From contig NC_092380.1 in the NCBI RefSeq assembly GCF_030028105.1, positions 63,051,717-63,115,716 on the forward strand: a DNA stretch of 64,000 bases, in the 5' to 3' direction. The notes beneath the pieces are model-generated. The model saw only the letters and a list, made by a program, of their open reading frames with translations. It had not been told where the DNA came from and made no database searches. Shown here in pieces: positions 23,601-60,819 of this stretch. The stretch is from Mobula birostris. Its lineage: Eukaryota. The stretch's first letter is position 1, and each line of letters starts with the position of its first letter. A program made the translations under genes and the position numbers.

Positions 23601-24110
23601 AACACAAGAGATTCTGCAGCTGCTGGAAATCTACAGCAACACACACAAATTGCTGGAGGAGCTCTACAGGTCAGGCAACATCTACGGAGAAGAATAAACA
23701 CTTGACATTTTGGATGGAGACTCTTCAGCAGGACTGGAAAGGAAGGGGAAAGAAACCAGAATAAGCAGCTGGCGGGAGGGTAAGGTGTACAAGCTGGCAG
23801 GTGATAGATGAAATCAGGTGAGGGGTAAGGTATGTGGGTGGGGGAAGGGTCATGAAGTGAGATGCTGGGAGTGATAGGTGGAATACGTAAAGGGCTGAAG
23901 CAGGAATCTGATAGGAGAGGGGGGTGTTGGGCAGGTGAGGAGAAGGAGTAAAAAGGGAGCCAAAATGTGGAATGGAAAAAGAGAAAAGAGAGAGAGAAAG
24001 GAGGAGAAATTACCAGAAATTAGAGAAACGAATGTTTGTGCCATCAGGTTGGAAGCTACCTAGATGGAATGAGGTGTTGTTCCTCCAACCTGAGAGTGGC
24101 GTCATCAGGA
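23600..24110 (-). mobile_element. Old Penelope-like 3' fragment
   Basis: Same terminal block (TTCTGCAG-TGCTGGAAAT...CACACAAA-TGCTGGAGGA) and purine-rich tract as 36279 and 54000. GIY-YIG C-terminus on minus (RLEEQHL...LGSFQPDGTNI). Hammerhead motif at ~23700-23737 is degenerate. Confidence 0.78.
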
Positions 24111-27977: not shown

Positions 27978-30956
27978 CAACGTGATTTTCCTCTCCCTAA
28001 ATTAATTTTCAATGAGATTGAATTTAAATTAAGGTTTTGTAGGAGATCTTCACGTGATTCGCGGCGACAGAGTGTTTGCGAGAATAGAACCGTGTGTATA
28101 TCAATCACTGTGAAATTCAGTCTGTGAAAAACTTAGGGTTTGTTTTTTTTCTGAGAAACCTTAATTGTTTTTGAGACTTATTGTAAAGTAGACATTGTGC
28201 ATCTCTTCTTCACTTTCCAATCCTGTTCTGAAGCCATTAATTAAACCTTGGTTTTGTTTATGTAAATATCAGAACGGTTGGGAACTTTTACACTTACGTG
28301 GCCAAAAACCCTTCAGGTCACGAACTCCAGTCGTGTTATATCAACTAAAATCTGATACAAAGGAGATTAATTTTGGAATGTGGAGTCTTCAGTGTTACCC
28401 ATCTGAATTTAGAAAAGTGGGGAAGAGTCCTACCCTATGAGACTTGTGTACTGTCTTGCCTTCCTTTGTCTAGTTGGTGCTCTCAGAGATCAGCAGTATA
28501 AGTAGCACACAGTCTGTTTCAAATTATGAAGTCCTTTGGAATCCTTTCACCTGAACGGTATAGAATTCTGTCAGTTTTAATTAATGAACAAAAAACCCAG
28601 AGCAATGTCTCCCAGAAAATTTAATTTCCCAGCATAATTGATAATGTTTTGGTGATTCTGGAGCAAAGTAGAGAGTTGTTTGATTTTCTGTTCAACTAAA
28701 ATTTCTGACATTCTAATTTTTTTTTTGTTTTATTCTGTGGATTTGGAAACTTAATAAAGGAAAGATCATCCAAACCTGGACTCTGTTTTGGAATGTTAAA
28801 ATTTAAATTATAACTGGTGCAGGTTTGTACACATGAATCTGCATTATTGTTTACCTTAACTGGCTTTGCATTTTCAACATTTGAATTAGTAGTATCCTTA
28901 TTTGTAATATATAACCAAGTGTGGGATCCAACCAAAATATCAAATATGAAATTTGTTCCTTTTTATACCTTGTTCCTTACCAAAATGACTTTTATCCATG
29001 CAAGTCGTACGATGCTTTGGAAAGTTGGAGAGAAATTAGTTTTTGATTGCTAATGTCAAATAAATGCAAGAGCATTTGTCACTAGTTCTCTTCATCACTG
29101 CACGTTTTGAGTTCACATTGGAACTGAATGTGGTGTTCTTTCAATTAGTGTTTGGCCTCTTCATAGCAAATAACAGTTAAGCTATTATGGGAGTGGAGAG
29201 TTACACTCTGTGGTCTGTTTTATCTTCATGCCTGGGTTCAGTGGGTCAGCACAATTGGTCCAGATGGGTATCAAATCCTCCAGCAAACCAGACTCAGTAT
29301 TATCCAGTCCCTGATCCAATAGCTGAATAATCTTTCTACAGATTTACATCATTGTCAATATTTTGAGATTTCATACACATAACGATCCAGATTACCAAAG
29401 AAAAAACAAACAGGAGAAAATCTGCAGATGCTGGAAATCCGAGCAACACACACAAAAATGCTGGAGGAACTCAGCAGGCCAGGCAGCAACTACAGAAAAA
29501 AGTATGGCTGAAAGTCCAGATTCTATATAAAAAAGATGGAATGGATTGCGTCCTGCTTATCTTTTGAAGTGCTCATTCATTAGGCAAGAAATTGAAAGTC
29601 GAAATAAATCCTAATCTTTTTACAATTGGAAGAAGTTTTAGACAGGGATAAAATATACAATAAGGTAAATTGCTCATGTTCTTTACAAAGGGGCATCAAA
29701 AGAATTTATTTCAGCACCAACTTTGTTGAGGAAGCTAAGTGAAAAAGCTCAAGATAAAATAACAAAGAATTTAACATACATTTATATTATTGATTTCATT
29801 TGGAAACAAAACACAATGAAATCAATGAAGCCATATCTACCTTCTCATGGGTAAAATCCCTTCCTGGAGAAAGTAAAATGATGGTGAATTCTAATGATTA
29901 AAATTCTGCAACTACTGCCAATGGAGTGAATAATTTGAGGTGGTTAATTGAAAGCATTACTCAAGCATTGTAACTGGGTGTATTTATTTTAGTGAATTGG
30001 TACTATATTGTAATCCTTTGTACTAACACTTAATTATCTTTTCACTTACAGTGAATTATGCTTCTGTTGTATCCTTTGGAATAAAAGTTGCCATATCCAG
30101 GAGCTGTATTAGTGCTTTCTAGTTCTGTGTTCTTGTAGCTTGTAAATGAAATGCATCATTTATTCCAGAAAGCATAAAGAGTAATTAATATGTGGAAAGT
30201 AAACAAGAATGATATTCAATATGATTGTTGTATCTACTTGTGAAGGAGGATTCGCTCATAAGAGGATTCAAATATTCTGCATTTCAATATTGCAGTTTGT
30301 ACTTGATTCAAGACATTCTTGATTGTTTTTTGCTTTCTTAGACGTCTGACCTTTCTTGTTGCTGATTTGTGGATCCAAGGGTAATGGCAGTCATACAGCA
30401 TTGTGGAATATATTTGTGAGCGATTTTAGTTTTGAACTATATGAATTAAATAATCCAGTTTTTCTTCACCCTGGATGAGAAAAGGGGCATTATCTAAGTT
30501 AAGACCAGTTAACTTTGTACAGATCAAAAATTAAAACTAAACCTATCTTGATACTCAAACTATAAGTTGATTTATGCACTAAGCTATCAAAATAGGCCCA
30601 ACAATTTTGAAAACTCTGCAAGTTCAGAATATAAGTAAGATAGTGGGGAAGAGCCCAGAATGCATTTGATTTTATACCTTTGCTAATGGAAATTCTGCAT
30701 TAGCAAAGATATGAAATCACAAGGCAAGATTAATTTTCTACTCTCACATTTACATTTTCAGTGCACATATATGCAGAAGAAATATTTTCTTTTGCTTAAG
30801 GAAACAGAACTTGTTGAAGAAAGTGATCAATTTTGGTAATTATCTTTTTGGGAAGCAGCTTAATTCTTAATTTGAAGATACCTGCTGAGATAGAACTCAA
30901 GACATTGAGAATGTTGTTTTCATTGCAGTAACATACCTTAACCAGAAATTCAACAG

Positions 30957-35155: not shown

Positions 35156-36278
35156 CAGTACAAGCAAAGAATTTTTTAGGCCAGTATGATAAATACCGTA
35201 CACCGGAAATTATTCCTTTTGGAAACCTTTTGTTTTGACACAGGCCTTTTTCAGACACCAGCAACTCCTGTCACCATGTCAAAGCAGTCCTGATGAATCA
35301 TATCTTACTTTATTTTTCCCAAGTTTCAGAAATTCAGAAAGAGCAGCAAACATACAGTATCTCACAGAATGCATCAAAAAGACTGAAATGGCTCTGATAA
35401 AGCTTAGAGTGAAATGATCTCGTAAGTTATCAATAGATACTGAAAATCTTCACTTGTATTCTGGAATTATAAAGGGTAACAACCTGGATTTGCTTCTTGA
35501 GTACACCTGACAATTAAAGATGTCTAACAGGATTTTTACATCAGTTGAGCAGTCTGAGAATTCAACTTTAGAAAATCTGTTTAAAGAAAACTTGGCTGTA
35601 TTTTTTGCTTTGATTCAGTTACAAAGACATGAAAAATGAGAGTTGGAATAAACGGGTCTTTCTCTGATTCCTCAGATTATCAAAGGGATTGGTCCTTAGC
35701 CTCAGCCAGTCATGGTCGACTGTACATCAACAATTTGGCTGACTGGACCATATGTCATATTTATAAGTTTGCTAATATATAAAAAAAATTAGGTGGGATT
35801 ATGAATAGGAAAGAAGATGTAAGGAGGCTCATGAGAAAGTTGATGAGCTGAATGAGTAAGTAAGTACATGGAAGATGAAATGTGAAAAAAAAATTTTTTT
35901 GGTTGCATAAAACAGAGGAATGTATTTCAGGTGGTAAGAAATTGGTGATGCCAACATTTATTGGGATCTAGATGTTGCTGAAAGTCAACAGGCAGAGGTA
36001 GCAAGCAGTTAGGGAAAGCAAATGGTATTCAAGCCTTTATTGAGAGAATGTTTCCCCTGGAAAAGGAGGCTAAAACCCAGAGTCTCAATACCAGACAAAA
36101 TATTTTGCATCTCTCAATTTTTTTTAAATCTGCAAAAGATACAACTTTGGAATTCTCTGGCCCAGAAGCAGGGAAGGCTGAGTAATTTGAGTTCACCTGT
36201 AGACTTTTGAATATCAAGGAATATCATGACAGTGCAGGGAAGTGACATTGAAATAAAAGTGAGCAATGCTCTTGATTA

Positions 36279-36575
36279 ACACACACAAAATGCTGGTGGA
36301 ACGCAGCAGGCCAGGCAGCATCTATAGGAAGAAGTACAGTCAATGTTTCGGGTCGAGACCCTTCATCAGGACTAACGGAAAAAAGATTTGACGGGGAAGG
36401 GAGAGACCTGAAATGATAGGAGAAGACAGGAGGGGGAGGGATGAAGCAAAGAGGTGGGAAGTTGATTGGCAAAAGGGATACAAGGCTAGAGAAGGGGGAG
36501 TATCATAGGGTGGAAGGCCTTGGAAGAAAGAAAGGGGGAGGGGAGCACCAGCGGAAGATGGAGAACAGGCAAGGA
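36279..36575 (-). mobile_element. Penelope-like 3' fragment with a hammerhead motif
   Basis: 11-bp TSD GCTCTTGATTA at 36268-36278 and 36576-36586; homologous to 54040-54330. Confidence 0.88.
36337..36373 (-). ncRNA. Minimal type I hammerhead ribozyme motif
   Basis: Minus strand: AGTC-CTGATGA-A-GGGT CTCG ACCC-GAAA-C-ATT-GACT. Confidence 0.65.
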
Positions 36576-41857: not shown

Positions 41858-41967
41858 CTGTTATCCAGTAGTAAATATCCCAATCATTGGTTGGCTGATT
41901 GATCAGTTTATCATACAAACTTAGCTGCTTCTCAGTCATTTCATTCAGGTACTTTTTTGCAAAGAAA
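41858..41967 (-). CDS. SDHAF2: SDHAF2 exon 3 ([36 protein letters not shown])
   Basis: TTTCAG acceptor and GTTTGT donor, 110 nt; NDWDIYYW motif. Confidence 0.96.
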
Positions 41968-41988
41968 CTGAAATGTAAAATAATAAAT

Positions 41989-42024
41989 TTCCAATTTTAG
42001 TATATGTGCTGCCGAAGCGAGCAC
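41989..42024 (-). pseudogene. RNU6: 3'-truncated U6 snRNA retrocopy (U6 nt 1-36)
   Basis: GTGCTCGCTTCGGCAGCACATATACTAAAATTGGAA is the U6 5' end; 10-bp TSD (AATAAATTTC on +) at 41982-41991 and 42025-42034. Confidence 0.93.
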
Positions 42025-43057
42025 AATAAATTTCATTCTACATATAAACCTTTGGTGTTCAGTTTTAAAACACATTTCAACACTGGATGAGATTGTTAGC
42101 AACTGAGTTAAACTAACTGTAAAGTGCCAAATGTTTCTGACACCAATCAGATTAACATCTTCCCTAATAAGTAAAAGGTAGTAAAAATAGGATTCCTTGC
42201 AATTATCTGTATTTTCATTATTTTTTTCTTTTTCCAGTAGCATGAAATCATTTTTTGTTTAGTACTTACAAAATAATTCATGAATTCTTGGGTAACTGTT
42301 TTTATGTTAATATCAATTTATGTAGAACTTTATATTTCAAGCAATGAAGTTGTTCTATCACATAAATAGCTCTAAATGGTAAGTTATAGTAATCCAATTT
42401 ACACAACAGATTCATCTAGGGTTTAGTCTACTCCACAATGATGCTTCTAGTTGTAAATTTGTACTACAAATCTTTATTTTTGTTAACTGAATACAAAAAT
42501 ACAGGGGAAAATACATTGTACTTAAGGCAGTAGTACCAATAGAAAGTACTTTCAGGTGAATTCAAATGTAGAAATAAACAGACTCTGCAGTTTCTCAAAT
42601 GACACTCAGGTCAGAACAAGATGTGGAATGCAGTAAAATCCTGGGAATCTGCTATCAAACTATTAAGAATTCTTGATGGTTTGGCATCTGACTCACCAGG
42701 TAATACTTGCTGTACTACCTATCTGCTCACTGGACCTCAGTTCTAACACTCTTTTTTCACCTGCTGAGGCTCCAATTCTTACCTTTTCATATCTGGAAAA
42801 CTAATCATTCGGTGTAACATTTAAACACCGAATTAAAAGAGGAATGAGGTATTAAAATGAGTAACATCCACTAGTCCAAAATACCTGCTAGTCCTGCCAC
42901 ACCAAAGTTTAGAGCTTGCCAGATTTTTTTGAATGTTAGTTTATCAACTAACAAGACAGAATGGTACCAGGAAAAGAAACACAATTAGAGAACAATACCT
43001 TATCAAATCGTAACTCAATAGGGTTTATCTATCTTCAAATTTAAGGGCCACTTTTAC

Positions 43058-43275
43058 CTCAGTAAGATGCAATTCTCTAACATTCCACGCTTACGGCTCT
43101 CGTATAGCAGACGTGCTCGCTTTGTGTCCAGTGGCTCATTTGTTCGCTCTTCCCATGGAGGCAGTGGTATTTGTATGATATCTGTTAAATGATCATCAGT
43201 ATCACCATGATATGCTCTGATAGGGGAAGCACCAAGTATGGCCTGTGCAGCTCTTTGTCTGGTCAGGCACCAAAC
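43058..43275 (-). CDS. SDHAF2: SDHAF2 exon 2 (VWCLTRQR...[38 protein letters not shown])
   Basis: TATAG acceptor and GTAAAA donor, 218 nt; contains the Sdh5 signature [12 protein letters not shown]. Confidence 0.97.
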
Positions 43276-43335
43276 CTATAGAAAACAAGATGGAAAGTAT
43301 TTTAGCCTATACATATTTAATTACACTTTTAAATA

Positions 43336-44182
43336 CACTCAGTGGCCAATTTATTAGGTACACCTATACACCTGCTCAAAAATGCAAATATTTTAAAATT
43401 TATTTTTATTGAGATACAGCATGGAATAGGCCCTTCCAGTCCTTTGAACTGTGCCAACCAGTAATCCCGATTTAGTCCTAGCCCAATCACAGGACAATTT
43501 ACAATGACTAATTTAACTACCAGTCAATACATCTTTGGACTGTGGGAGGAAACCCACAGAGTCACGGGTAAAACATACTTACTGGCAGCAGCTGGAATTG
43601 AACCTGGGTTGTCAGTACTGTAAAGTGTTGCGCTAACCACTACGCCACCGTGCCACCCATCTTATCAATCACGTAGCAGCAACCCAATGCATTAAAACAT
43701 GCAGACATGGTCAAGTGGTTCAGTTGTCATTCAAACCAAACATCAGAATGGGGAAGAAATGTGATCCAAGCACCTTTGACTGTGGAATGATTGTTGGTGC
43801 CAGGTGAGGTGGTTTGAGTATCTCAGAAACTGCTGATCTCCGAGGATTTCTACACACAATAGTATCCAGAGTTTACAGGGAATGTTGAAAATAACAAAAA
43901 ACACCCAGTGAGCAGCAGTTCTGTGGGTGAAAATGCCTTTTTAATGAGAAAGGTCAGAGGAGAATGGCCAGATGGGTTCAAGCTGACAGGAAGGCGACTA
44001 ACTCAAGTAACCACATGTTACAATAGTGGTGAGCAGAAGAGCATCTCTGAACACACAACACATCCAACCATGAAATGAATGGGTTACAGCAGCAGAAGAC
44101 CACAAACATACACTCTTGATCAGTCTGCATGCTTCTCTTTGCATTAACACACAGGTGCATCTAATAAAGTGGCTACTGAGTG
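43336..44182 (+). mobile_element. Tc1-derived non-autonomous element with both TIRs; nested V-SINE at ~43395-43660 (-)
   Basis: TA-CACTCAGTGGCCAATTTATTAG...CTAATAAAGTGGCTACTGAGTG-TA. SINE head GGTGGCACGGTGGCGTAGTGGTTAGC...GGTTCAATTCC. Confidence 0.88.
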
Positions 44183-44279
44183 TAGTCAGGTGAGACATGG
44201 GGTGGGTTAGGATACAGCCAGAAGCTTGTAAGAAGCTTTAGCAGATCATGTCTAAAAGATTTGTTGGATTCCATGACAA

Positions 44280-44960
44280 GGATATGGTATTCGTGCAGAG
44301 GGACTTAGGAGTCCTTGTGCAAGACTTCCAGAAGACTTCCTTAATTTACAGGTTGAGTCCGTGGAAAAGAAGGCAAATGCAGTGCTGGCATTTATTTCAA
44401 GGGGAGTAGACCTAAAAGCAAGGAGACAATGCTGAGCCTTTATAAGACACTAGTCAGGCTGTACTTATAATACTGTATTGTCAACAGTTTTGGGCCCCAT
44501 ATCTCAGAAAGGAAGTGTTGTCATTGGATGGATATTTCTGGGCCTGTACTCACTGGAATTTAGAAGGACGGGGGTGGGGGGGGGGGTCTCATTGAAACCT
44601 ACTGAATGTTCAGGCCTAGACAGAGTAGATGCGGAAAGGATGTTTCCCATGGTGGGAGAGTCTAGGACAAGAGGGCACAGCCTCAGGATAGATGGGTGTG
44701 CATTTAAAACAGAGATGCAGAGAAATCTCCTTCGTTCGAGGGTGGTGAATTTGTGGAATTTGTTACCACATGCAGCTGTGGAGGCCAGGTCATTGGGTGT
44801 ATTTAGGGCAGAGATTGATAGGTTCTTGATTTACCAAGGCATCAAAGGTTACTAGGAGTAGGCCGGGAACTGGGGCTGAGGAGGGGTAAAAGGATCAGCC
44901 ATGATTGAATGGCGAAGCAGACTTGATGGGCCAAATGGCTTAATTCTGCTTCTATGTCTT
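44280..44960 (+). mobile_element. CR1 LINE 3' fragment
   Basis: GLYSLEFRR, SRTRGHSLRI, RVVNLWNLLP. Confidence 0.85.
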
Positions 44961-45804
44961 ATAGAATATTTATTCATTTTTCACTTGAAATGCAAAAAAA
45001 TCAAAACCAATATCTTCAGCAAAATTTTCCATTTTCAACTGATGATGTCACTAAAAAGTAGCCACTTTCTATTTTCTATCAAAATTTTACAAATTTACTA
45101 TCAAATAATCTTGGATAGGATCCGTGTATATTTTAAACCAAAGGAAATTTACATAGTTACAAATAGTACTTTGGAGTATAATTATTAATGTTGCATATAT
45201 AAAAAGATGAAATAATTTGATTTATTTGAAGGAAACTTTAGATATTTCATGTAGTTTAAGGACCTGAAATTCTTTTGAACCATGCATTTCAGATAATCAC
45301 TTTAAATTTCCAGGACTCTGATTAACAGTAAAGTTACATTTTTTGGCCAAACAAGCATAATCTTGCATCACCTTGTTATCTACTAAATTCATTGCAAATA
45401 GCTTTCATAAAAATGTAGAAAAAGGATCTTGAGACTCTGGTTCAAAACCCCAGGTTTGAATGTTGAGAAGAACTTAAATGAATATGGCTGGGAAATTTGA
45501 CACAGTATGAATACAGCAATGGATGAGGCACAGCCAAGTATGGAAGAAAAGTGAAGTGAGACTGTGAAAAGGAATACTAAGTAGGGATAGGGGTACAGTA
45601 AAGGTGAGGAACAGACTAATGTTGAATAAAAACTATAATGAGGAGAGAGTATACCTAGGAAGTTATTCAAATGAGATCACATTGACAAGGTTCAGAAAAA
45701 TAAAAGGATACAAATCACTTTTCTGGGGACAACTCCGGGCTTCCAAATAATCAGCAGCATATCGAGGAACAGATATGCAAGGAAAATCATAGTGAAAATA
45801 TAAT

Positions 45805-46405
45805 AGACCATAAGACACAGAAGCAAAATTAGTCTATTTAGCCCATCAAGTCTGTTGCACTATTCCATCATGGCTGATTTATTATTCCTCTCAACCCCAT
45901 TCTCCTGCCTTCTTATAACATTTGCCACCCTTACTAATCAAGAACCTATTAACCTCTACTTTAAATGTACCCAATGACTTGGCCTCCACAGCTGTCTGTG
46001 GCAATGAATCTCACAGATTCGCCATCCTCTGGCTAAAGAAATTTCCCTTTATTTCTAAAGGGATGTCTTTGTATTTTGAGGCTGTGCCTCACAGTCCTAG
46101 ATTGTCCCACTACAGGAAACATCCTCTCCATGTCCACTCTATCTAGGTCTTTCAGTATTCTATAGGTTTCAATGAGATCCCTTCTCATTCTTTTAAACTC
46201 CAGTAAGTATAGGCTCAGAGCCATCAAGCGTTCCTCACATGTTAACCCTTTCATTCCCAGGATAATTATAGTAGGCCTCTTCTGGACCGCTTCCAATTAC
46301 CAGCAAATCCTTTCCTCGACAAGGGGCCCAAAACGGCTCACAGTACTCCAGATGTGATCTGACCAATGTCTTATAAAGCCTCCACATTACATTCCTGCTT
46401 TTTTA
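45805..46405 (-). mobile_element. CR1 LINE 3' fragment
   Basis: ORF 46033..46296 (LEFKRMRRDLIETYRILK). Confidence 0.85.
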
Positions 46406-47079
46406 TTCAAGTCCTGTTAGGGATTTTAATCTTTACAAATTCTCTGCTATTAACTGCTTTAATGTAGTGGCAGGTAGGATTTTTTGAACGTGCATTCAGG
46501 AGGACTCTAAGAGCCAGTAGATAGGCCTGTGACCGAAGGGGCAAAACTGGATCTAATTTTTGGGACAATGAGAATATTTTTGAGATACTGAGTTTCAAGA
46601 TTGTTACAGAAAAAGGCAAGGGTAGATCAGAAATTAAGCTCCTGAACTGGGGCATGGCTAATATGAATATGATAGGGCACGACCTGGCAAAGGAGACTGT
46701 GGGCAGCTACTTGCAGTTAAGCTTACATGCCACCAGTGTGAGGCATTCAAAAATTAAACAGTGAGAACTCAAGGTCAATGTGTTTACTTGTGTTCCCCTA
46801 ATGGTGAAAGACAAGGGATCATGGATGTCAAATCAAGGGTTGAATAAAGAAAATAAAGGTACCTTGTGCAGGTTTAGAGAACTGAAAACAGGTTAGGACC
46901 TACCAACCACAGTATAGAACATTTAGGGGGAAACTTCAAAGTAATTATAAGGGAAACAGAAAATGCCACATGGCAATGACAGGCAAGGTTATGCAAATCC
47001 CTAAGCATTTTACAATTATACAAAAGGGCAAAAAGATAAACTGGGAAAGGGAATAGTCCATTAGGAACCAAAGTGATAA

Positions 47080-47450
47080 TCGGCGGTAGCAGAACACTAC
47101 AGGCCATACGATTGACTTCAACGGCACAAAACTACTGTGCCACGCCAATGGCTTTTGGGACCACCTGGTGAAGGAAGCCATTGAAATAAAACCAGAGAAA
47201 AAGAATTTTAACAAAGATGAAGGTCTTGCTCTGAGTAAAAACTGGAATTTGATTGTAAACAAGGTGGGACAACAAAAATCTGATTGGATGGGGACTAACC
47301 AATCAGGAGTGATGGACAACAGGGGTGTATATATCATCAGACTAGATATGCCTAGGCATTATCCCTGATAAAGATTGCAGAGTTTGTCATTGAAACATCG
47401 GTGAAACCAATATGTGCACCCAGCTGGAAGCCCTAGAAGAGTTTATTTGA
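47080..47450 (+). mobile_element. Penelope-like 3' fragment of a second family (GIY-YIG C-terminus plus degenerate hammerhead), inside an old CR1 (~46410-48400)
   Basis: LVKEAIEIK...NFNKDEGLALSKNW is a typical PLE endonuclease C-terminus; followed by CTGATAA...GAAACATC at 47365-47399. Confidence 0.8.
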
Positions 47451-49027
47451 TGAAGGTGAGATTTCACATGAATTCTTCCTATCTGTATTCACAGTGGAAA
47501 AAGACATTGTATTTGGGAATTCAGGGGTGGGGGGTGGCAGAGTTCTACAACAAATTGCAACTGAGATTACCATTTTATGTCTTAGCAGGTTTAACGGTGG
47601 ATAAATCCCTAGGGCCTGATCAGAGGGATCCAAAAACACTAAAAGACAAGATTGCTGGTGCTCTGACAAAAATTTCAAATCTTCTCTGGCCACACTGGAG
47701 CATTCTATGTGGTACCCTAATTTAGGAAGGGCAGCAAGTATGTAGCAAGTAATTAGAGGCAGGGTGCAGCACTGACTGTAGGGAAATAATTGTAGAAAAA
47801 TATTAAGGACAACTTCAATCTGCACTTGAGATGCAGTGATTGATCAAGCATAGTCAGCATAGCTGTATTAAACAGGTGTCTTGTCTGACTAATTTGATTT
47901 TCTCCCTGAGAAGGTGATTAAGGTAGTAGCGTTGATATGCTCTACATGGACTTCAAAATTATTTTTGAATGAGGTTCTACAGGGAGATTCATCTGAAAGA
48001 TTAAAAGCTCATGGGGTTGAGGGCAATTTGGCAAATTAAGCCTGAAATTGCTTTGGTGATAAGAAATATAAGGTGATGTTTGGGAGTTTTTTTTCTAAAA
48101 ACTTGTGGTGATTTAATGAAGTGATCAATGCTGGGCCACTTATTGTTTCCTCTTGACAATCTGGACGAGAATGCAGAGAAGTGACAGTATGTTTGCAGTT
48201 GACACAAAGATTGGAAGCTTTGTTGATAGTGAGGAGGGTAGTTTTCAGCTACAAACAATATTGAGGAGTTAGTAAAAATTAAACGGGTGAAATTAAACCC
48301 TATAGGGGTCTTGTATTTCAAAATGACTAAGTCAAAAATGCTGAAGTGGTGGAATTGAGTACAAAATTTGAGGGGCAATAAGAAACCTCTTTCATAATTA
48401 TGACATCATAGATTTAAGTTAAGAGATCTAGAGGGGAGACACACTGAAGAGAAGAAAATATCTAGAACTCTCTGCTGAGGCAGGGCAGATAGTGAACACT
48501 TAAATATTTGGATCACCACTTGAAATACTACAGCATAGAATGTTTCTATTCTGCATGACTGAGTACAAGACACAATTAAACTGAAACTAGGTGATTAAAA
48601 ATTAATTTTTACCCAGTATTCACTTGAGGGTATTCAGCCACCCAAACTTGTTCTTGCCATTCAGTTGTTTTAACCGAATCTTGCAATAATTTATTATTTT
48701 ATTTAAAAATAATAAACCTAGATTCGGCTTTTAAGGGACTGTTTTAGATTTTCTTGAGTCTCTGTGTGTTCTTGAATACTTTAGTTTAAATGTCTAGAAT
48801 CTGTTACGTACTCCCTCAGCTAATCGATCTGTTAAGTATATCTATCATTTGCTTAGATAACAAAAGCGGGGGGGGGGGGTGTGCAGGCCCGATATGTCAA
48901 AATATGAAATGTTAGTCCCCGGTGACATTCAGGTGAAATAACCCGTCAATCTCACCGTCGTTAGTGAACGGAAACTTGAATGCCAAGTCGCTTTCTGAGT
49001 ATTTTTGTTGTTGAAGGTTTTACTCAC

Positions 49028-49045
49028 ATTGCGCACAATCGACAT
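49028..49045 (-). CDS. SDHAF2: SDHAF2 exon 1 (MSIVRN)
   Basis: AAGATG start with an upstream in-frame TAA; GTGAGT donor, phase 0 as exon 2 requires. Total CDS 18+218+110+131 = 477 nt, or 158 aa. Confidence 0.8.
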
Positions 49046-49280
49046 CTTACACCTATGTAGTTACAAACGTGGCAGAGCCCAGAGCAATACGAAGCAGCAA
49101 GGCCGACCTGAGAACTGATAAAAGCCGAAACCCAGTTCACTGATTCAGGACCGGAAGTGCACTGTGTCACAGGCAATTGGGTCCGTATTGCCTCCGCAGT
49201 TTGGTTCGTCCCTGAAAGGCATCCGGTTGTTTAATTGTCCCTGTTCGCGCGGTACGGTACGGTGCGGCGCGGCTGGGGGA
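49046..49280. promoter_or_regulatory. Bidirectional SDHAF2/CPSF7 promoter with an ETS/GABP site
   Basis: 235 bp between the divergent ATGs; CpG-enriched; CCGGAAGTG at 49151-49159. Confidence 0.8.
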
Positions 49281-49334
49281 ATGGCCGAGGGAGCTGACTT
49301 AATCGATATTTACGCGGATGAAGAGTTTAATCAG
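49281..49334 (+). CDS. CPSF7: CPSF7 (CFIm59) first coding exon (MAEGADLIDIYADEEFNQ)
   Basis: 54 nt with a CAG|GTGGGT donor. DLIDIYADEEFNQ is CPSF7-type (CPSF6 has DHIDIYADVGEEFNQ). Adjacent to SDHAF2. The next exon was not found in the window. Confidence 0.92.
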
Positions 49335-51247
49335 GTGGGTGAGCACGAGTTCTGGAAGCAGGGGGAATAAAGAGTAGTGCAAGGTTTATGATAAGCGTGA
49401 GATTTAATGGAGTCTTGCTGGAAGAGAGTGGGCAGAAATTCAGAATCGCGGTCCAGGCCTTGGCTCGATTTCGAGAGCTTTGGATTGGAGGAGGGAAGGG
49501 GTTGTGAAGGTCCCTTGACTGGGCCGAATACTTGCATCTTAAAATCGTCTTGGAGTATAAAGATCTTTGAGGCGGAGAAATCTTTGCATGTTGAAATAAC
49601 TGGGGATTCGCTTTTAGCGATCACTTTGGGAAAATCGGAATTGGATCTGGATTTGTTGTTGATAATTTCTCATAAAGAAATTTTCTTATCGTTGGATTGT
49701 GAAGTTTAGACTTCCGGTGCTTTAAGGTTAGACATGACATATTGATACATACTGTCGTAAGAAGCAATTTCGGAAACGAATAAAATGACATAACAGAAAT
49801 CTGAAAGTAAGGTGTTGATAAAGAACACCATTTAAACCGGGATATTAAAAAGGGCAAGAGTGGCTCAACTTCAGATCGTCACCAATGAGATGTATTTGTT
49901 AGATGATTATACGATGTGTTAGTTTGTCTGTGTACTTGGCAGCAGGTTTGCATTGCAATAAACAGTTATTCTTGATTATTCCATACGTTGTTCAGTGTGT
50001 TCGGATGAGGCAAGGGTAGGATTTATGGCACTAAAAATGGGGGGGGGGGGGAATTAACATTTTCTTCTGAAATGAAACAAAAAGAAGCTGCAAAGTTTAT
50101 ATTTTGAATAATTATTTAAGAACATTATTGGTGGTTTAGATGAAGACTGTTTGTACTGAAGGCGAAGTCAAAGTCGCTGTAAACAAATTTAATACCTTTC
50201 TTTGAGGGGTGTTCTTAAGCTTGGTGCTGTCTCTGTAACTTTGGCCTTTGTGAGTTAGGGTTAGTAAATGGCAACATTCATAAAGTTTACCATAACACTA
50301 TTCCACATCAACACAAAAAAAAAGCAGTCCAGCCAAACTCACTTTCCACCACTCGGTCCTTGACTCTGCAAGTCATAGCTCTTCAAGTACACGCTACATA
50401 TATCAGAGAAATTTTAAAAAATGAAGAAGTCTGTTATCTAGTAGTGCCTTATTAGGCAGCATGAGGCTTGCTTATTGAATTGAGCTGGTTCATCCATGCT
50501 GGATGTCTGTCTGATGCAGCTGTAAGAAATATGGATGGAGGCAGGTCAGGGGAGATCTGGTTTGTGCCATAAAAGTAACTGCCCTGTGGCAATTTGAGTA
50601 AAAGTGCCTTGAATACTGATTTTCTTTAAAGTAAGATTATAGGCAGAACATAACACCATGAATAAAATGCTGATAATTAACCATGACTCTAACCCATTGA
50701 CAATATTTTTTGTTAATACTGGGTTGGGTTTTAGAATAGTACCTTTGCTTTCAAGCAAGTAATTTATCAGTAATGAAAAGAGTTGTACAATTCCATATGA
50801 AAGAAACAATTGTAGGTCACAGGAGAGAAGTTTGGTAACTTTAGTTTTCAGGGATCAGCCAAGTTGATTTTAGATTTTTCTCCAGTTCTCTGTTTTACTG
50901 TGTTCTTAAGACTTAATTAATTGAAATATAAATTGGGGTCTGTAGGCTGCCATCTGTTTTCTCAGAAGGAAATCTAAATAGGGGCAAGCAAACTGTGTAT
51001 AACCATGTTTATTTTAAATTGAAGACTGCCTTAAAAAATGTTTCAGATGTCCACAGCAGGGAGATCCTAGCTTAAAAATTCTTGAGCTACAGACAGAAGT
51101 GTCATGGAGATATGGGGGCATATAGAATGCTAAATTCATTTACCCAATAACATTTCTATATCTAAAGCTATTAGTACGAACATGCCTTGGTGTACAGATT
51201 TAAGATTTGTTTGTCAATTAACAACAGACTGTTCCAATTTTCTAGCC

Positions 51248-51715
51248 TAGACCATAAGACATAAGAGCAGAATTAGGCCATTTGGCCCATTGAGTCTGCT
51301 CCACCATTCAATCATGGCTGATTGTTTCTCCCCTCCTCCGTCTTCTCCCCATAATCTTTGATGCTATGTCCAGTCAATAGCCTGTGAAGCTCTGCCTTAA
51401 GTACATCCAATGACCTGGCCTCCACAGCTGCCTGTGGTAATCAATTCCACAAATTCACTACGCTCTGGGTAAAGAAATTTCTCTGCATCTCTGTTGTAAA
51501 TGGAGGCCCCCCCTATCCTGAGGCTGTGCCCACTTGTCCTAGACACCCCCCCCCACACCATGGGAAGCATCCTTTCCACATCTACACCGTCTAGGCCTTT
51601 CAACATTTGAAAAGTTTCAAGGAGATTCCCCCCCACCCCCATCCATCTGAATTCCAGTGAGTGCAGACCCAGAGCCATCATACATTCCTCATATGGTAAC
51701 CCTTTCATTCCTGGA
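51248..51715 (-). mobile_element. CR1 LINE 3' fragment
   Basis: ORF 51397..51708 (MKGLPYEE...LGLHSLEFR); same 3' end as the 45805 and ~31550-31820 copies. Confidence 0.85.
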
Positions 51716-52114
51716 ATGAAGCTTCTTAAAATTCAAATAGGACAAGTTATGTCAGAAATATAATCTCAGGATTCAGCTGGCTGGGCAGCAAAGGCAAATT
51801 TATCTGAATTCCCAATTCCACCCATTTCAAACCTGCAGTACTTTTACTGACTGTAATGCCTGTTGGATAAGCAGTGTTATGGACATGTGATGGCGATGAA
51901 GACTGTTTTGGGCTTGATAACTCTGTTACTTAAAGAGAGTCTTGTATTTATATAAAATCTTCTCATGTATTTTCATATGTCATGATCACCCAAACCTTGG
52001 ACCTCCGGAACTATTATAAACGGTGAAGTTTCTTTTTGTAATCTAGTTACTGGTAATAAGTAGGAAATGTGGTAGTTACTTGTACTCCCACAATCAACAA
52101 TGTAACAATCTCCT

Positions 52115-52287
52115 GCAATACAAGAGAATCTGCAGATGCTGGAAATCCAAGCAACACACCCAAAATGCTGGAGGAACTCAGCAGGCTGGGCAGCATTTGT
52201 GGAAATGAATAAACAGCCGACTTTTCGGACTGAGACCTTGATGAAGGGTCTCGGCTTGAAATGTCGACTGTTTACTCAATCTCCAGC
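52115..52287. mobile_element. Penelope-derived short fold-back element
   Basis: Terminal block followed by GAGACCTTGATGAAGGGTCTC and an inverted copy (GAAATGTCGACTGTTTA). Confidence 0.78.
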
Positions 52288-53853
52288 TAATCTGTTTTTG
52301 GTAAGTTGAGTGAGGTACAAATCATGGCTGTGAAAATGAGAATAACTATCTTCAAATTTTGAAGTGAATTTATTGTTAAAGTACATAATGACACCATATA
52401 CAACCCTGAGATTCATTTTCTTGCGAGCATTCACAGCAACTACAAGAGACACAATAGAATCAATGAACAACCACACCCAACAGAACAGACAAGCGAACAA
52501 AGTGCAAAAGACAATAAACTATGCAAATACAATAAGTAATAATAATGGCAGATGAGAAGAGGTAAGGTGCCAGAGTGAGGATTGGAAGCAGTGGGGAGGG
52601 AGAGGGGGAAGCAATTAATTTTACTGGAAAGAGAAACTGATGTTCCAGCCATCAGGCTGGAGGTTACTCAGATGGAATTTAAGATGTTGCTTCTCCACCC
52701 TGAGAACGGCCTCATAGTGGCACAAGAGGAGGCCATGGACTGACATGTCAGAACAAGAATGGGAATGAAAATTAAGATGTTTGGCTACTGGGAAGTTCCT
52801 CTTTTGGAGAGAATGGAGCAGAGATGCTTGATGGAGCGGTCCCCAGTTTACAATGGGTCTCAGCAATGTGGAGGAGGCCACATTGGTGGCACCGGACACC
52901 ATAGATGGCCCCAGCAGATTCACAGGTGCAGTGTTGCTTCACCTGGAACGACGTTTATGGGGCCCTTAACGGAGGCGAGGGAGGAGGTGAAGCACTTTGG
53001 CCACTTGCAGGGATAATTGCCGGGGTTGGGGGGATTGCATAGGGGTGGGGGGTTAGTGGGGAGGAACGAATAGACAAGAGAATTGGAGGGAGTAATCCTT
53101 GTGGAAAGTGGAGGGGGGGGGATGGTAAACTGTTTAGTGGTTGGATCCCTGTGAGGATGGCAGAAGTTGTGGAGGATGATGTGTTGGATGCGTAGGCTTA
53201 TGGTATGGTGGGTAAGGACAAGAGGAACTCATCACTGTTAAGGAGCGAGGAAGATGGGTTAAGTGAGGATGTCAGGGAGTGGAAGAGATGAGGGTGAGGC
53301 ATCAAGAGATGCGGCAACATCAGAGCGAGGAAAACCCCGTCCTTTGAAGAAAAGCATCTCTGGTGTCCTGGAAAGGAAAGCTGCATGCAGGGAACAAATG
53401 CTGTGGAGACCAAGGAACTGAGAAAAGGGAATAGCATTTTTACAGGAGACGGTACGAACAGGTATAGTCAAGATAACTGTAGGAATCAGTAGATTTATAA
53501 AAGATGTCTTTTGACAGTTCGTCTCTAGAGATGGAGACAGAGGGTCAGGAAAGGGGAGGAAGGTGTCAGAATTGGACCAAGTGAATTTAAGTGGAGGGTT
53601 AGAGACAAAGTTGATGAAATTGACGAGCTCAGCAAAGATGCATGAAGTGGAACAATGCAATCATCAATGTAGCAGAGGAAAAGTTAGTGAACATTACAGG
53701 GGAAGGCTTGGAACATGACCATTCTACGTAGCCAATGAAAAGGCAGGTATAGCTAGGGCCCATGTGGGTGTCCAAGGCTACCCCTCAAGTCTGGAGAAAG
53801 TATTTTAGAACCAAAGCAAAATTTGCTGAGGGTGAGGACCAGATTTGTCAGGC

Positions 53854-53934
53854 CAGAGATTCTCAACCTCTTTTTACGCCATAGAGCCTTGTCATTAGCC
53901 GAGGGGTCCATGGACCCCAGGTTGGGATCAGCTG
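53854..53934. mobile_element. Possible hAT-type MITE
   Basis: Imperfect TIRs CAGAGATTCTCAACCT / AGGTTGGGATCAGCTG interrupt the Penelope RT; TSD not clear. Confidence 0.5.
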
Positions 53935-54095
53935 TGCCTGGTGGTGGAGGGGAACTACTTGGTTCTTCTACTGAGAAAGAAGTGGAGAGCTTTAAGGCAA
54001 ACAACAGGAATTCTGCAGATGCTGGAAATTCAAGCAACTCACATCAAAGTTGCTGGTGAACGCAGCAGGCCAGGCAGCATCTCCAGGAAGAGGTG

Positions 54096-54132
54096 CAGTC
54101 GACGTTTCAGGCCGAGACCTTTCGTCAGGACT
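54096..54132 (-). ncRNA. Minimal type I hammerhead ribozyme motif (left arm)
   Basis: Minus strand: AGTC-CTGACGA-AAGGTCTCGGCCT-GAAA-C-GTC-GACT; stem II weakened by one substitution. Confidence 0.65.
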
Positions 54133-54768
54133 AACTGAAGGAAGAGTGAGTAAGAGATTTGAAAGTTGGAGGGGGAGGGGGAGATCCAAAATGATCCAAA
54201 AAGACAGGAGGAGGAGGGATGGAGCCAAGAGCTGGACAGGTGATTGGCAAAAGGGATACGAGAGGATCATGGGACAGGAGGTCCGGGAAGAAAGACGGGG
54301 GGGGGGGGAACCCAGAGGATGGGCAAGGGGTATATTCAGAGGGAGAAAAAGGAGAGTGAGAGAAAGAACGTGTGTATAAAAGTAAGTAACAGATGGGGTA
54401 CGAGGGGGAGGTGGGGCATTAGCGGAAGTTAGAGAAGTCGATGTTCATGTTCGACTTCTCTAACTTCTGCTAATGCCCCACCTCCCCCTCGTACCCCATC
54501 TGTTACTTACTTTTATACACACGTTCTTTCTCTCACTCTCCTTTTTCTCCCTCTGTCCCTCTGAATATACCCCTTGCCCATCCTCTGGGTTCCACACCCC
54601 CCCCCGTCTTTCTTCCTGGACCTCCTGTCCCATGATCCTCTCGTATCCCTTTTGCCAATCACCTGTCCAGCTGTTGGCTCCATCCCTCCCCCTCCTGTCT
54701 TCTCCTATCATTTTTGATCTCCCCCTCCCCCTCCAACTTTCAAATCTCTTACTCACTCTTCCTTCAGT

Positions 54769-54806
54769 TAGTCCTGACGAAGGGTCTCGGCCTGAAACGT
54801 CGACTG
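54769..54806 (+). ncRNA. Minimal type I hammerhead ribozyme motif (right arm), intact core
   Basis: Stem I AGTC(54770-73)/GACT(54802-05); CTGACGA at 54774-80; stem II AGG...CCT; GAAA at 54794-97; palindromic ACGT helix III; GTC cleavage triplet ending at 54801. Confidence 0.78.
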
Positions 54807-56069
54807 CACCTCTTCCTAGAGATGCTGCCTGGCCTGCTGCGTTCACTAGCAACTTTGATGTGTGAGCTTTAAGGCATCCTTGATGGAAGATAGAAGTGTA
54901 TAGGGACTGAACATCTATGGTGAAAATGAAGCAGTCAGGTCTAGGGAATTGAAAGTTAATGAGATTTGGGCGCATGAGAAGTGTATAAATATAAGATGAA
55001 GAGTCCTTGAAAGTGAGGCCATATGTTGTGGGAGCAGTTTCATGATGGGCAAGTGAAGTTGTCCCCTCTTTTTCAAGAGCCTATTGATTGAGGAAGTAAT
55101 AACTAACTGTTCTGAACTTGGTGGTGTGAGTCCTGAGGCAGTATACCTTCTTCCTGATGGCAGCAGCAAGAAGAGAACATGACCTGGATGGTGATGGTCC
55201 TTTATGATGGATGCTGTGCTTTCCTGCAATAGCACTCCTGTAGATGTGCTCAATGGTGGGGAGGGCTTTACCTGTGATGGACTGGGATGTATCCCCTACT
55301 TTTTTGTAGGCTTTTCCATATAAGGGCATTGGTGTTTCCATGCTGGGCCATCATACAACCAGTTGATATACGCTCCACAACATCTATAGAAGTTTGTCAA
55401 AGTTTTAGATGGCATGCTGATCGTCGCAAATTTCTTTGAAAGTAAAGGCCCCTTCTGTATTGGTTTTCAAAATAACGCTGTTGGATCTTTTATGTCTGTG
55501 TGGATCAGCAGACAAGGGATCATTGAGCACTTCATAAGTAAGACAACTCTGTCGCACTGCTTGGGTGATGCATTTGCATGTGAGCATGGGCTGGTCTTTG
55601 TAACAGATGAATTAATTTACAAAAATGTTGAGCGTGTGTCACACTTAATTTTCCAAGTGCAAGTGTCATTTTTTTTATTTTAGTAAAGGTATTTTCATTC
55701 TGATGTGTATTCTAGGTTGACAGAGGATGGAAATTCACAAGTTTTCTTCTTGAACAGCAATTAATTTTTAATTTTGGTTATACTTATTTGACCATGGCTT
55801 CTTTAAAAGGGATGAGCTAGATTAAAAACTTATACACCCCTCCCCAGGTACGCACTGATATAATTACAATGAATTTACAGCACAGGAAAAAGCCTTTTGC
55901 TTCAGTTTGTCAGTACTTACATTTTAAACAAACTTCTTCCAACCCTATTTCATCCAAAGTTATCATTATCACCCTTGTTTACAAATTTAACTTCCTTTAG
56001 TGCACTCTGCGTCTTAAGATTCTGAAACACACTTGGTTTCACCTGTTCATCATAAACTAAATTAGAAGG

Positions 56070-56592
56070 TCAGGTTCTGGTCACCTCACTACAGGAAGGA
56101 TGTGGAAACCATAGAGAGGGTGCAGAGGAGATTTACAAGGACGTTGCCTAGATTGGGGAGTATGCCTTATGAAAACAGGTTGAGTGAACTTAGCCTTTTC
56201 TCCTTGGAGTGACGGAGGATGAGAGGTGACCTGATAGAGGCGTATAAGATGATGAGAGGCATTGATCGTGTGGATAGTCAGAGACTTTTTCCCAGGGCTG
56301 AAATGGTTGCCACAAGAGGACACAGGTTTAAGGTGCTGGGGAGTTGGTACAGAGGAGATGTCAGGGATAAGATTTTTCGGCAGAGAGTGGTGAGTGCGTG
56401 GAATGGGCTGCGGGCAACGGTGGTGGAGGCGGATACGATGGGGTCTTTCAAGAGACTTTTGGATGGGTACATGGAGCTTAGAAAAATAGAGGGCTATGGG
56501 TAAGCCTAGTAATTGCTAAGGTAGGGACATGATTGGCACAACTTTGTGGGCCGAAGGGCCTGTATTGCGCTGTAGGTTTTCTATGTTTCTAA
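56070..56592 (+). mobile_element. Young CR1 LINE 3' fragment
   Basis: ORF 56219..56503, closely similar to the 19101..19661 copy; tail TTTCTATGTTTCTA. Confidence 0.92.
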
Positions 56593-57547
56593 GATAAATT
56601 CTAGTAAGTACATCTTCAAAAGACAGTGCCTCAAGAAGGTGGTATCCATCATTGAAGACCCTCATCATCAGGGAGATGTCTGCTTTGTGTTACTACTGTA
56701 AGGGAGGAGGTCAGGAGGCTGACGATCTACACTCAATGTTTTAGGAACAGCTTCCTCCCCTCTGCCATTGGATTTCTGAATAACCACCTCGTTATTAGTC
56801 TTCTACACCATTTATGTATTTTTGTAACTTAAAACTAATTTTTATTTCTTTTACTGTACTGCAGTAAAGCAACAAATTTAATGACGTGTCAGTGATGATA
56901 AATCAGAATCTGAAATTTATAATTATATCTCATTTATCTTAAATGGATTTTACATAATTATTTTGGATGTTTTAAAAATTATTTTAATCTGATATTCTTT
57001 ATTCACTTTTAACCAGAGCCCTAAATACGGTGGTGGTAATTTATTTAATTTATTTTTACATTCTTGGTGTTTGCTGTACAACCATAGATTTTCATAAACC
57101 TTTGTGGTTTGTGCAGGAAGCAGTGTTATTTAATACTGAACATTCTCAGTTATATTTTTATGTTTGTGGTATTTGGGATTTCCAAGCATCTCCACAGATG
57201 CTGTGTGAATTGCTGAATATCTGCAACAGTTTCTGTTTTTATTCAAATTCTTAGCTTCTACCATATTTTGCTGTTATGTAACTATATTCTGAAGTTAATT
57301 TCTAATGGTATTAATCTGGAGTTACGGATTTTTCTTGTAGCTGGATATTCCTCATCAGATTCAGAATCTAGAATCAGGTTTACTATCACCAGCATATGTT
57401 GTGAAATTTGTAATCTTTGCAGCAACAGTACAATGCGATACATGATTATTAAATAGTTAAATTATTCAATTAATGCAAAAAATAGGAAACTTAAAAAGTC
57501 ATGAGGCGGTTTATGGGTTCACTGTCCATTCAGAAATCGAATGGCAT

Positions 57548-57961
57548 GTTACCTGTTGTAACGTGGTTATTTGAGTTACCGTCAGCTTGAACCAGTCTAT
57601 CCATTCTCCTCTGAGCTCTCATGAATAAGGCATTTTCGCCCACAGATCTACCCCTCACTGGATGTTTTTTATTGTTTTTCACATTGTTATCTGTAAACTG
57701 TAGAGACTGTCATGTGTGAAATGCCCGTGAGATTGGCAGTTTCTGAAATACTCAAACCACCCCATCTGGCACCAACAATCATTCCACAGTCAAAGTCACT
57801 TAGATCACATTTCTTCCCCGTTCTCTTATTTGGTCTGTACAATAACTAAGTCTTGACCATGTCTGCATGCTTTTATGCATTGAGCTGCTGCCACATGATT
57901 GGCTGATTAGATATTTGCTTAAGGAGCAGGGTGTACCTAATAATAAAGTGGCCACTGAGTG
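57548..57961 (-). mobile_element. Tc1-derived element fragment
   Basis: Reverse complement of the 43336 family; TIR TAATAAAGTGGCCACTGAGTG followed by TA. Confidence 0.8.
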
Positions 57962-60819
57962 TATATTGAGATGTTTGCATCGCAGTCTATGAAGAGTTTA
58001 AAAAAAAAATTCCATCAGTACAATTGGTGATACCGCTTTGCTAATATCTGGGTTACAAGTCTATCACCTGATGAAGTGGTAGTATGTCTAATTTATTGGT
58101 GCTAGGATTAATTTGGACTAAAAAAATTACACCCACTGTAAAACAAAAACACTCACATTATAGCATAAAATCTGATTTAAAAAAAAAATATAATAGATTG
58201 ATAATGTCTCCTAGATGTAACATTGTGTAGGATGTTATGTAACATTTAATTTTGAATCTCAATTTTTTTTCATTAGAATGAGGTGGGAGAATGAATGAGG
58301 TATAAGGTAAATGGTGGAAGCTGGTGTTCTTGGATATGAAAGTAAAAAGTTCTTTTCAACTTTTGATGATCTTTATATCATCTCTTTGGTATTGCTCACC
58401 TAAATAACACATGTGCTTCTAGCTCTCCAAATACCCTAAGTAAAACACTGCAGATGTTGAAATTTTGAAATAAAGCAGAAAATCTTGTTTATGTCAAAGT
58501 TTGTCATGGCATGTGATCAGTAGCCATAGATATGAGCATGTAGATGCATGTAAATGCATTATTTCCCTTTTGATGTAAATATAATTGTATTACTTACAGA
58601 AAGTTGTAAACTTGGCCAGCTCCACCAGCACGAAGGACACATTTAAAAGGTGATGCCTCAAAAAGGAGGCATCCATCTTTAAGGAACCCCATCACCCAGA
58701 ACTTGCCCTCTTCTTACTACTACCAAGGAGAAGCTACAAGAGACCGAAAACACACTCAACATTTCAGGAACAGCTTCTTCCCCTCCACCAGCTGATTTCT
58801 GAATGGACATTGAACCCATGAACACTATCTCACTAAATTTTTCTTTTGCCCTCTTTTTGTACTAGTTTTTTTATATATACTTATTATAATTTATATTTTT
58901 TTATTATTATGTATTGCTGCCATAAAACAACAAATTTCATGACATATGCCAGTGATTTTAAACCTGATTCTGATTCTCATAAGATGGTCCAAGGTGCTAT
59001 AAAAATGCCTCTAGTCTTTAATGCTCTAAGTACGTGTGCAGTAAAACTTGCTTTGGGGAGTAAACTTTCTCTGCTAGTAAAACCAAGTGTGTTGTTCTGT
59101 GACCTCTTAAGTGCAAGCACAGCATTGTCTTTGAACATTAATCCTCCTTTCTATATTCCTTGGACAAGACACGAGGCTTCTCATTGTCTCATCAGGCCTT
59201 AACATCTGCATGTGCCAACTTCGGCCTTTGACTTTCGGTATCAACCCCAGGACTCACCTGTCACAGGAATTTCTACTCTGGACCTCAATCTTTGAACTCA
59301 CAAGCACCTTCAATCCTGGGGGTGGGGGGTGGTGGGTACACACACACCGACCTGGAGGTGTCACCAGTCCTCTCCATGGGACCTGTCAAGCTTGGTCATT
59401 GACCAGGGAACCACTGTCTATGAGAATCTTTTGCTGTAGAGCGCTCCTGCATCTCACTCTTTATTTACTGCCCCATCCTCTAACACCATTCATCCCTGTC
59501 TGCTGCCCCTAAAACCATCCTTATGAACAAAAAATGACCGGTTGAGCCACTAACTCGATGGACATTGCAGCTTGGTGCCATCTTGATCACATGTTCATTG
59601 TCATCTCAATATCAGCAAAACAAGAGCTGGTCATTGATTTCAGGAAGGGGGTGCTGCTCATGCTCCTGTCTACATCAGTGATGCTGAGGTTGAGAGCTTC
59701 AAGTTCCTAAAAGAGAAAATCACCATTGGCCCATTCAACCATATGTACGCCACAGTCAAGGAAGCTCACCAAAGCATCTACATTTAGCATGTCCCCATCA
59801 ATCCTTTCCAGTTTTTATTGATGCACCATATAAAGCATCATTGTCTTGGTGTGGTAACTCCATGGACTCTGTCTACACGTCACACTGTCAGCATAACCAG
59901 ACCCTACCCAGCCCGGACATTCTCCTCCCCATCTCACTGGGGAAGAAGCTTGAAAGCCGAGACCACCAGGCCTGTACGCCACTATTATAAGACTATTGAA
60001 TGGTTCCCTAGTGTGATGGATGGAATCTTGACCACACAATCTATCATATTGCACCTTGCTGTTCTCCTGTACTGCACTTTCTCTAGCTGTTGTACTTCAT
60101 TCTGCATTTTGTTATTGATTTATCTTGTAATACCTCAACATACCATGTCATGAATTGATCTGTATGAACAGTATGCAAGACAAGCTTATTACTGTACCTC
60201 GGTACAATAGTAACAATAAACCAATTACGGAGGGACAACCCTGATAATGGCAGTATTGAGGCATATCAGGAAGTAGAATTAGTTTGTAGAGAACTGAGAA
60301 GCAGAATGTGGTTGGAAACATGGTGGCAGTTGTCTATGGGGCCCCCAAGTGGGACACAGTGTATGTAAACTGGGCACTTAGAGATGCATCAGGGTACCAT
60401 AATAATCATGGGGAATGTTGATAATGGAAATACCAAATTAGTGTGGAGGATGAATTTGTAGACATGTTTTATAGGTTATGATTTTCTAGACATGTTGAAG
60501 AAACAGTGAAAAAAATAGCTATTTTAGATGTAGTTTTGTCCAATGAGAAAATATTAATTAAAAAGCCTGTTGTTAAGGGACCATATTGAAAGTCATTTAG
60601 TTCAGTTTGAAACTGAGATCCTCAGTTTAACCAAAGCAGATTATGAACGTATAAGATGCAAGTTGGTTTTGTAGATAGGAAAGCTAATATGACAGTAAGT
60701 GAACAGGGGCTAACATTTAAAGAATACATAAATGATAAGAAATCACTTTTTAAGCCACAGAAAAAATATGGAAAGTGATCTAGACGTAATAAAAGAAGCT
60801 AAAGATATTCCAACCCCAT

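Follow-up and report, generated by a model that had tools for sequence, protein, structure and literature searches.

Minimal hammerheads and the insertions that carry them

The closest described relatives of the motif treated here are the minimal hammerheads of Penelope-like elements (PLEs). For these, the account given in PMC4209133 reports no detectable cleavage by a single S. mansoni copy and low activity of dimers, and it already notes dual minimal hammerheads some 100-700 bp apart on opposite strands. A hammerhead from an Anolis PLE of the Poseidon type is described in PMC11167929 as cleaving only with the PLE protein and as not being needed for insertion in vitro, and no RNA-seq ends at its cleavage site are described there. 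Both accounts, as far as they bear on the point, leave open the activity of PLE minimal hammerheads in vivo (PMC4209133, PMC11167929). The published in vitro data on PLE hammerheads come from other families (Cercyon, Poseidon) and not from Neptune-type elements.

PLE insertions have a layout of their own, with an adjacent inverted and 5'-truncated copy and an optional one-sided tail of 30-40 bp (as described in PMC8557442 and PMC3846280), and head-to-head terminal repeats (pLTRs) with target duplications of 8-10 bp are described in Adineta (PMC3846280). A C-x(2-5)-C-x2-C motif upstream of the C-terminal GIY-YIG is given as the mark of the Neptune/Nematis clades (PMC8557442), and about 43% of the retrozyme-type monomers described in Xenopus are in introns (bioRxiv 10.64898/2026.07.22.740005). 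Both the motif and the insertion layout considered below have been described before, and the present copy, a further example of them, is of little consequence by itself. Literature titles gave no paper linking CPSF7 with a hammerhead among the matches listed.

The motif and its register

The window (the whole 64,000-nucleotide stretch of Mobula birostris DNA that was analysed) had been given a first-pass annotation claiming all the parts of a type I hammerhead, with helix III reduced to a self-complementary ACGU, in the sense strand of a CPSF7 intron. The parts are present at the places claimed for them. Stem I is formed by AGUC (54770-73) with GACU (54802-05) and closed by U54769-G54806, the letters having been checked; the conserved core comprises CUGACGA (54774-80, C3 to A9) and GAAA (54794-97, with G12 to A14 at 54794-96); and the palindromic ACGU, which is indeed all that is left of helix III, occupies 54797-800 and leads into the GUC cleavage site with C17 at 54801. 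All the invariant letters stand in type I order (C3-U4-G5-A6-N7-G8-A9, G12-A13-A14, A15.1-U16.1, H17), with an extra A (54781) between 9 and 10.1, a palindromic 15.2-16.2 and no helix III loop. Chance does not account for it: with up to 3 mismatches allowed, the window yields 4 matches and 100 shuffles yield 0.

The register used takes the motif as homologous to the published minimal hammerhead, the extra A being placed behind A9. Stem II then reads G-U, G-C, G-C, U-G around CUCG, and in fold prediction this register is the lower in energy (-7.0 vs -5.6 kcal/mol). Its pair 10.1-11.1 is a G54782-U54793 wobble, the highly conserved G-C of the published hammerheads being absent. Recognition by the Rfam hammerhead models, which had been put forward as a check, did not follow: a scan of 50000-60000 gave 38 matches at E<=10 with no hammerhead covariance model among them, the matches being of microRNA type, hairpin-driven and below gathering scores, together with other weak ones. 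Missing helix III would probably account for this.

Table 1. Coordinates in the window of the insertion, its target and the host exon
Feature	Position	Strand	Basis or remark
First coding exon of host CPSF6/7-family gene	49281..49334	+	intron from 49335 past window end
Older decayed PLE RT-endonuclease gene, the insertion target	52624..55000 (approximate limits)	-	interrupted by fold-back
13-bp target-site duplication, left copy	53987..53999	+	flank comparison
40-nt PLE 'tail' extension, left arm only	54000..54039	-	shared, after the same boundary, by many of the copies sampled
Left arm: inverted copy of same PLE end	54040..54441	-	arm-to-arm alignment
Antisense hammerhead copy in left arm	54096..54133	-	one stem II substitution, G10.1 -> A
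9-nt spacer at head-to-head junction	54442..54450	.	between arms
Right arm: 5'-truncated PLE 3' end	54451..54863	+	last GIY-YIG ORF codons, 3' UTR/pLTR, hammerhead; no tail
Minimal type I hammerhead motif of PLE terminal repeat	54769..54806	+	letters read directly
13-bp target-site duplication, right copy	54864..54876	+	flank comparison

The element family

Exact matches to a 34-nt hammerhead pattern with two degenerate places, counted on both strands, number 30,596 in the 4.0-Gb genome (15,047 + 15,549 by strand), which is one per 131 kb; the reversed control pattern has 0. The motif is not CPSF7-specific but one of these ~30,600 matches. At such a density a 75-kb gene has a chance of about 25% of holding an exact sense copy. 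The suggestion that residence in the gene for a 3'-end cleavage factor is noteworthy is not supported.

The hammerhead's place is the PLE terminal repeat, which follows the RT-GIY-YIG ORF. Longer copies (L031, L043, L046, L053, L055) have, further upstream, a GIY-YIG frame that includes a C-x4-C-x2-C linker, and these frames end in the same codons that begin both arms of the insertion; the GIY-YIG Pfam match has an E of 1.7e-4, just under the curated cut-off. Frame and linker together bear out the earlier identification of the motif as a Penelope-like minimal hammerhead. A Poseidon-type label for the element was dropped given the linker, and the sequence points instead to a PLE of the Neptune/Nematis type, 'Neptune-type' being taken from the linker and from Neptune's occurrence in vertebrates.

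The wobble at the base of stem II is widespread: G10.1-U11.1 is found in 24,435 of the 30,596 exact matches (80%) and C11.1 in the other 6,161. By contig depth, C11.1 makes up ~20% in organism A, 17% in B and 73% in D. It would seem that the subfamily with the most copies has lost the conserved G-C pair, and CpG decay of C11.1 may contribute to the majority of U11.1. G-U at this position is a subfamily variant, G-C there being a consensus trait and not an invariant core letter. Contigs of the family are abundant in one run guessed to be RNA, where 4,597 match the stretch; in organisms B and D each DNA run has between 33,600 and 74,243 contigs on the stretch, and other PLE copies swamp the insertion junction.

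The window has further PLE end fragments at 2743-2924, 23611-23693, 29415-29498, 36278-36484 and 52129-52270, the first and last of which fold back inside the hammerhead stem II region. Other mobile elements are present as well. Two minus-strand frames (133-606 and 10847-11689) have the appearance of transposase remnants, which we take to be of the Tc1/mariner kind, and elsewhere (locus L019:5240-9240) a region like an LTR-retrotransposon gag-pol lies between two exact minus-strand hammerheads 3.9 kb apart.

A head-to-head insertion in an older element

The hammerhead copy is part of an insertion of 864 bp (54000-54863) in which two 5'-truncated PLE ends stand head to head (Table 1), with the traits of the insertion unit of endonuclease-bearing PLEs: an inverted 5'-truncated copy at the 5' end, a tail at one end and a target duplication. 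Over ~413 nt, 16 of the 50 sampled loci (the first 50 distinct exact-match places listed, all within the opening 4.9 Mb of a single contig) match the right arm at 92-95% identity. Aligned to the right arm over 412 columns, the left arm shows 12 substitutions along with 10 gap columns, in two indels. An antisense copy of the motif had been placed ~650 nt upstream; it was found there in the left arm, 673 nt away start to start.

On either side of the insertion lie successive pieces of an older minus-strand PLE reverse-transcriptase gene. Of 11 related loci, 7 have these two pieces side by side, with an overlap of about the length of the duplication, and the other 4 have no match to the junction-side part of the left flank. 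It was through related loci that this decayed target was identified: a related 725-aa frame (locus L075) has a weak RVT_1 match, and Pfam matched none of the five frames of the target itself. A 31-nt pattern across the head-to-head junction occurs once in the genome, from which a single insertion event follows; spreading of the hairpin as a non-autonomous unit was rejected on the same count. One retrotransposition event would have written a short cDNA of the PLE 3' end twice, in opposite orientations, and would also have made the 13-bp target duplication. The antisense arm is a by-product of insertion.

How common is the antisense partner?

Ten of the sampled loci were taken with 1.5 kb on each side and 40 with 4 kb upstream. 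A complete antisense hammerhead (up to 4 mismatches) lies upstream of 16 of the 50 copies, in 6 of the 16 at 608-753 nt, like that of the CPSF7 copy, and an inverted arm of any kind accompanies 23 of the 50. At the 40 loci with 4 kb upstream, antisense partners outnumber sense partners by 12 to 2 at up to 4 mismatches (Fisher p=0.006) and by 14 to 5 at up to 6 (p=0.03). Pairs within 4 kb among the first 100 exact matches listed comprise 6 head-to-head, 1 tail-to-tail and 3 tandem. Long genes in genomes such as this may hold a PLE hammerhead, about one-third of the time with its own antisense copy.

CPSF7 itself has hammerheads at two more places. The next intron, 13.6 kb past the window end, has a second fold-back (locus L012:3444-3732), a 289-bp palindrome of 95% whose sense and antisense hammerheads are separated by 80 nt; in each of them the 15.2-16.2 palindrome or stem I is broken. 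In a later intron, 50 kb past the window end, there is a solo core-intact sense hammerhead (locus L016:46-83), which has its tail and, over the 1.5 kb upstream of it, is not accompanied by an inverted arm.

The host gene and its intron

Beyond the exon in Table 1 the next host exon starts 3,250 bases outside the window, and further ones follow up to ~60 kb from the window end. The first exon and this next one are joined in contigs from three of four runs guessed to be RNA (two studies); the contigs stop at the donor site and then run into the next exon, so that the motif lies inside a spliced 17.9-kb CPSF7 intron, in its sense strand, as the first-pass annotation had it.

Which of two paralogous genes the host is was less clear-cut. 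Its naming as CPSF7 is upheld by synteny and by the existence of a second paralog; going the other way, one host exon scores higher to human CPSF6 than to human CPSF7 in a PDB search (51.9 vs 41.1 bits). The second CPSF6/7 paralog, on C11, is 88% identical over 51 residues and is presumably CPSF6-like. An Sdh5/SDHAF2-like gene (Pfam E 6.7e-5, under cut-off) stands head to head with the host gene, the arrangement that SDHAF2 and CPSF7 have in human. With synteny and the second paralog as its grounds, the identification of the host as CPSF7 is likely. The SDHAF2-like gene occupies 41888-49161 on the minus strand, and its first exon (49026-49161) is some 70-90 bases from the CPSF7 transcript start seen in contigs, a proximity by which a shared two-way promoter is implied.

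Predicted folding

Taken alone, the 38-mer is predicted to form a rod, with G5-A6-C7-G8 paired to C15.2-G16.2-U16.1-C17 (p 0.98-0.99), this misfold being at -11.0 kcal/mol versus -7.0 for the open hammerhead form (shuffle z -1.2). The construct 54755-54830 is likewise predicted to fold into unrelated hairpins, and the 4-bp ACGU duplex by itself is put at -1.7 kcal/mol. With the left arm, the 38 nucleotides are predicted to form a duplex of -77.5 kcal/mol, and the insertion as a whole one of ~410 bp at -842 kcal/mol. In folds of the growing transcript the sampled motif bases pair with the left arm as they appear, in keeping with the idea that the antisense arm, transcribed first, would pair with the ribozyme. 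An active monomer fold in this context is not predicted, there being no helix III, a misfold of the core and full pairing to the arm.

The further idea of a built-in 'off switch' is not supported. A duplex of this predicted length and stability is without an evident 'on' state, and an inverted truncated end such as the one with the antisense copy is regularly brought along by PLE insertions, as counted above for the sampled copies and as described in PMC4209133, PMC8557442 and PMC3846280. By these predictions, the pairing would be a permanent lock rather than a switch.

What the motif does

We regard it as very probable that the motif is a standard PLE minimal hammerhead in an intronic head-to-head stub, locked in duplex and likely inert. 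The left arm would be transcribed first, the emerging right arm would zip onto it and the hammerhead is predicted never to fold. Left without that arm it would still be expected to misfold, and cutting would need a second copy and probably also the PLE protein. The intron is spliced out, and the stub would be a passenger in CPSF7, its only likely molecular footprint being a ~410-bp intronic double-stranded RNA, a probable substrate for A-to-I editing. The assays cited at the outset agree with this reading, though indirectly, as they concern other PLE families. Partners for a dimer in trans do exist in principle, the invariant core being intact and family contigs being abundant in the RNA-guessed run.

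A reading at the level of the family would have tens of thousands of core-intact PLE hammerheads, many of them intronic, cut in trans by PLE RNA/protein, fold-backs persisting in genes because the antisense arm neutralises the ribozyme, and G10.1-U11.1 attenuating harm to the host, with the CPSF7 copy as one locked example; we think it improbable. Were pre-mRNA cleavage to prove true, the ~30,000 near-identical copies would provide a good in vivo test of PLE minimal hammerheads.

Occasional collateral cleavage at this locus would not involve any selected role: PLE RNA or ribonucleoprotein would pair in trans via ACGU before the hairpin closes, and a small share of transcripts would be cut. The dimer mechanism with its low dimer activity (as reported in PMC4209133), the protein-assisted cleavage described in PMC11167929, the many family copies and the family contigs in the RNA-guessed run can all be cited for it, but the ACGU duplex is worth so little, and, by prediction, every emerging base is taken up at once by pairing with the cis arm. 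Besides, the unlocked L016 copy further down CPSF7 would be a better cleavage candidate than 54769-54806 and thus a better substrate. We consider such cleavage very unlikely.

An exapted ribozyme, with the antisense arm as the switch that tunes CPSF7 pre-mRNA, would act when arm pairing failed (through editing, helicases or protein binding), the intron then being cut and CPSF7 output lowered. The sense orientation in a transcribed intron and the intact invariant core are what one would look for, and functional intronic ribozymes have precedents in CPEB3 (as described in PMC10919898) and in the RECK/CTCL/DTNB hammerheads (as described in PMC6155905). These domesticated examples, however, show canonical tertiary contacts and conservation throughout the amniotes, whereas here there is no helix III, 10.1-11.1 is G-U and the monomer is predicted to misfold. 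The same pairing is present in about one-third of the sampled copies and has been described in print as a product of insertion, the arms have drifted apart, one of their 12 substitutions falling within the antisense hammerhead, and there is no evident mechanism to open a duplex of -842 kcal/mol. Exaptation of this kind is extremely unlikely. The chance that the hairpin arose in assembly, as a fold-back chimera and not as a genomic insertion, is next to nil, for though inverted PLE structures are described as troubling assemblies (PMC8557442), the target duplication, the flanks that abut in related loci, the tail on one arm only and the substitutions and two indels between the arms all speak against it.

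Comparison with known systems

Returning to the preferred reading, that of a locked and likely inert PLE hammerhead, the likeness to the minimal hammerheads described by Cervera and de la Pena (2014, PMC4209133) is extensive. The CUGANGA/GAAA/UH core, the extra nucleotide between 9 and 10.1, the palindromic 15.2-16.2 without loop 3 and the stem I of 4-5 bp are shared, as are the site in the PLE terminal repeat, the thousands of dispersed single copies and the pairs on opposite strands. The pair 10.1-11.1 sets the two apart, being G-U here and a highly conserved G-C there; helix II has 4 bp here versus 7-8 bp in S. mansoni; and the copy number here exceeds the 4,000-9,000 reported for coelacanth and Xenopus.

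With the insertion unit of endonuclease-bearing PLEs, as described in PMC3846280 and PMC8557442, the stub shares the head-to-head arms, the tail at one end, a target duplication (13 bp here, 8-10 bp in Adineta) and secondary insertion into another PLE. Unlike that unit, it has both arms trimmed to the last ORF codons, without coding capacity.

The RECK/CTCL/DTNB hammerheads (PMC6155905) and the HDV-like CPEB3 ribozyme (PMC10919898) have in common with it that a self-cleaving motif is found in the sense strand of a host intron. These ribozymes are described as conserved at one orthologous place (PMC6155905, PMC10919898), whereas 54769-54806 is 1 of ~30,000 copies, and for CPEB3 self-scission and an effect on its own mRNA have been measured (PMC10919898). 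Unlike ribozymes of the RECK/CPEB3 type, the CPSF7 copy keeps its retroelement flanks, is without helix III and gives no hint of being conserved, the junction being swamped by other copies in the contigs of two relatives.

Non-LTR retrozymes, as described in bioRxiv 10.64898/2026.07.22.740005, likewise carry a hammerhead of type I that stems from the pLTR of a PLE, and their monomers are dispersed in genomes. They are head-to-tail tandem units, however, whereas the CPSF7 stub is a head-to-head pair whose junction is found once in the genome, so that this hairpin does not spread as a unit.
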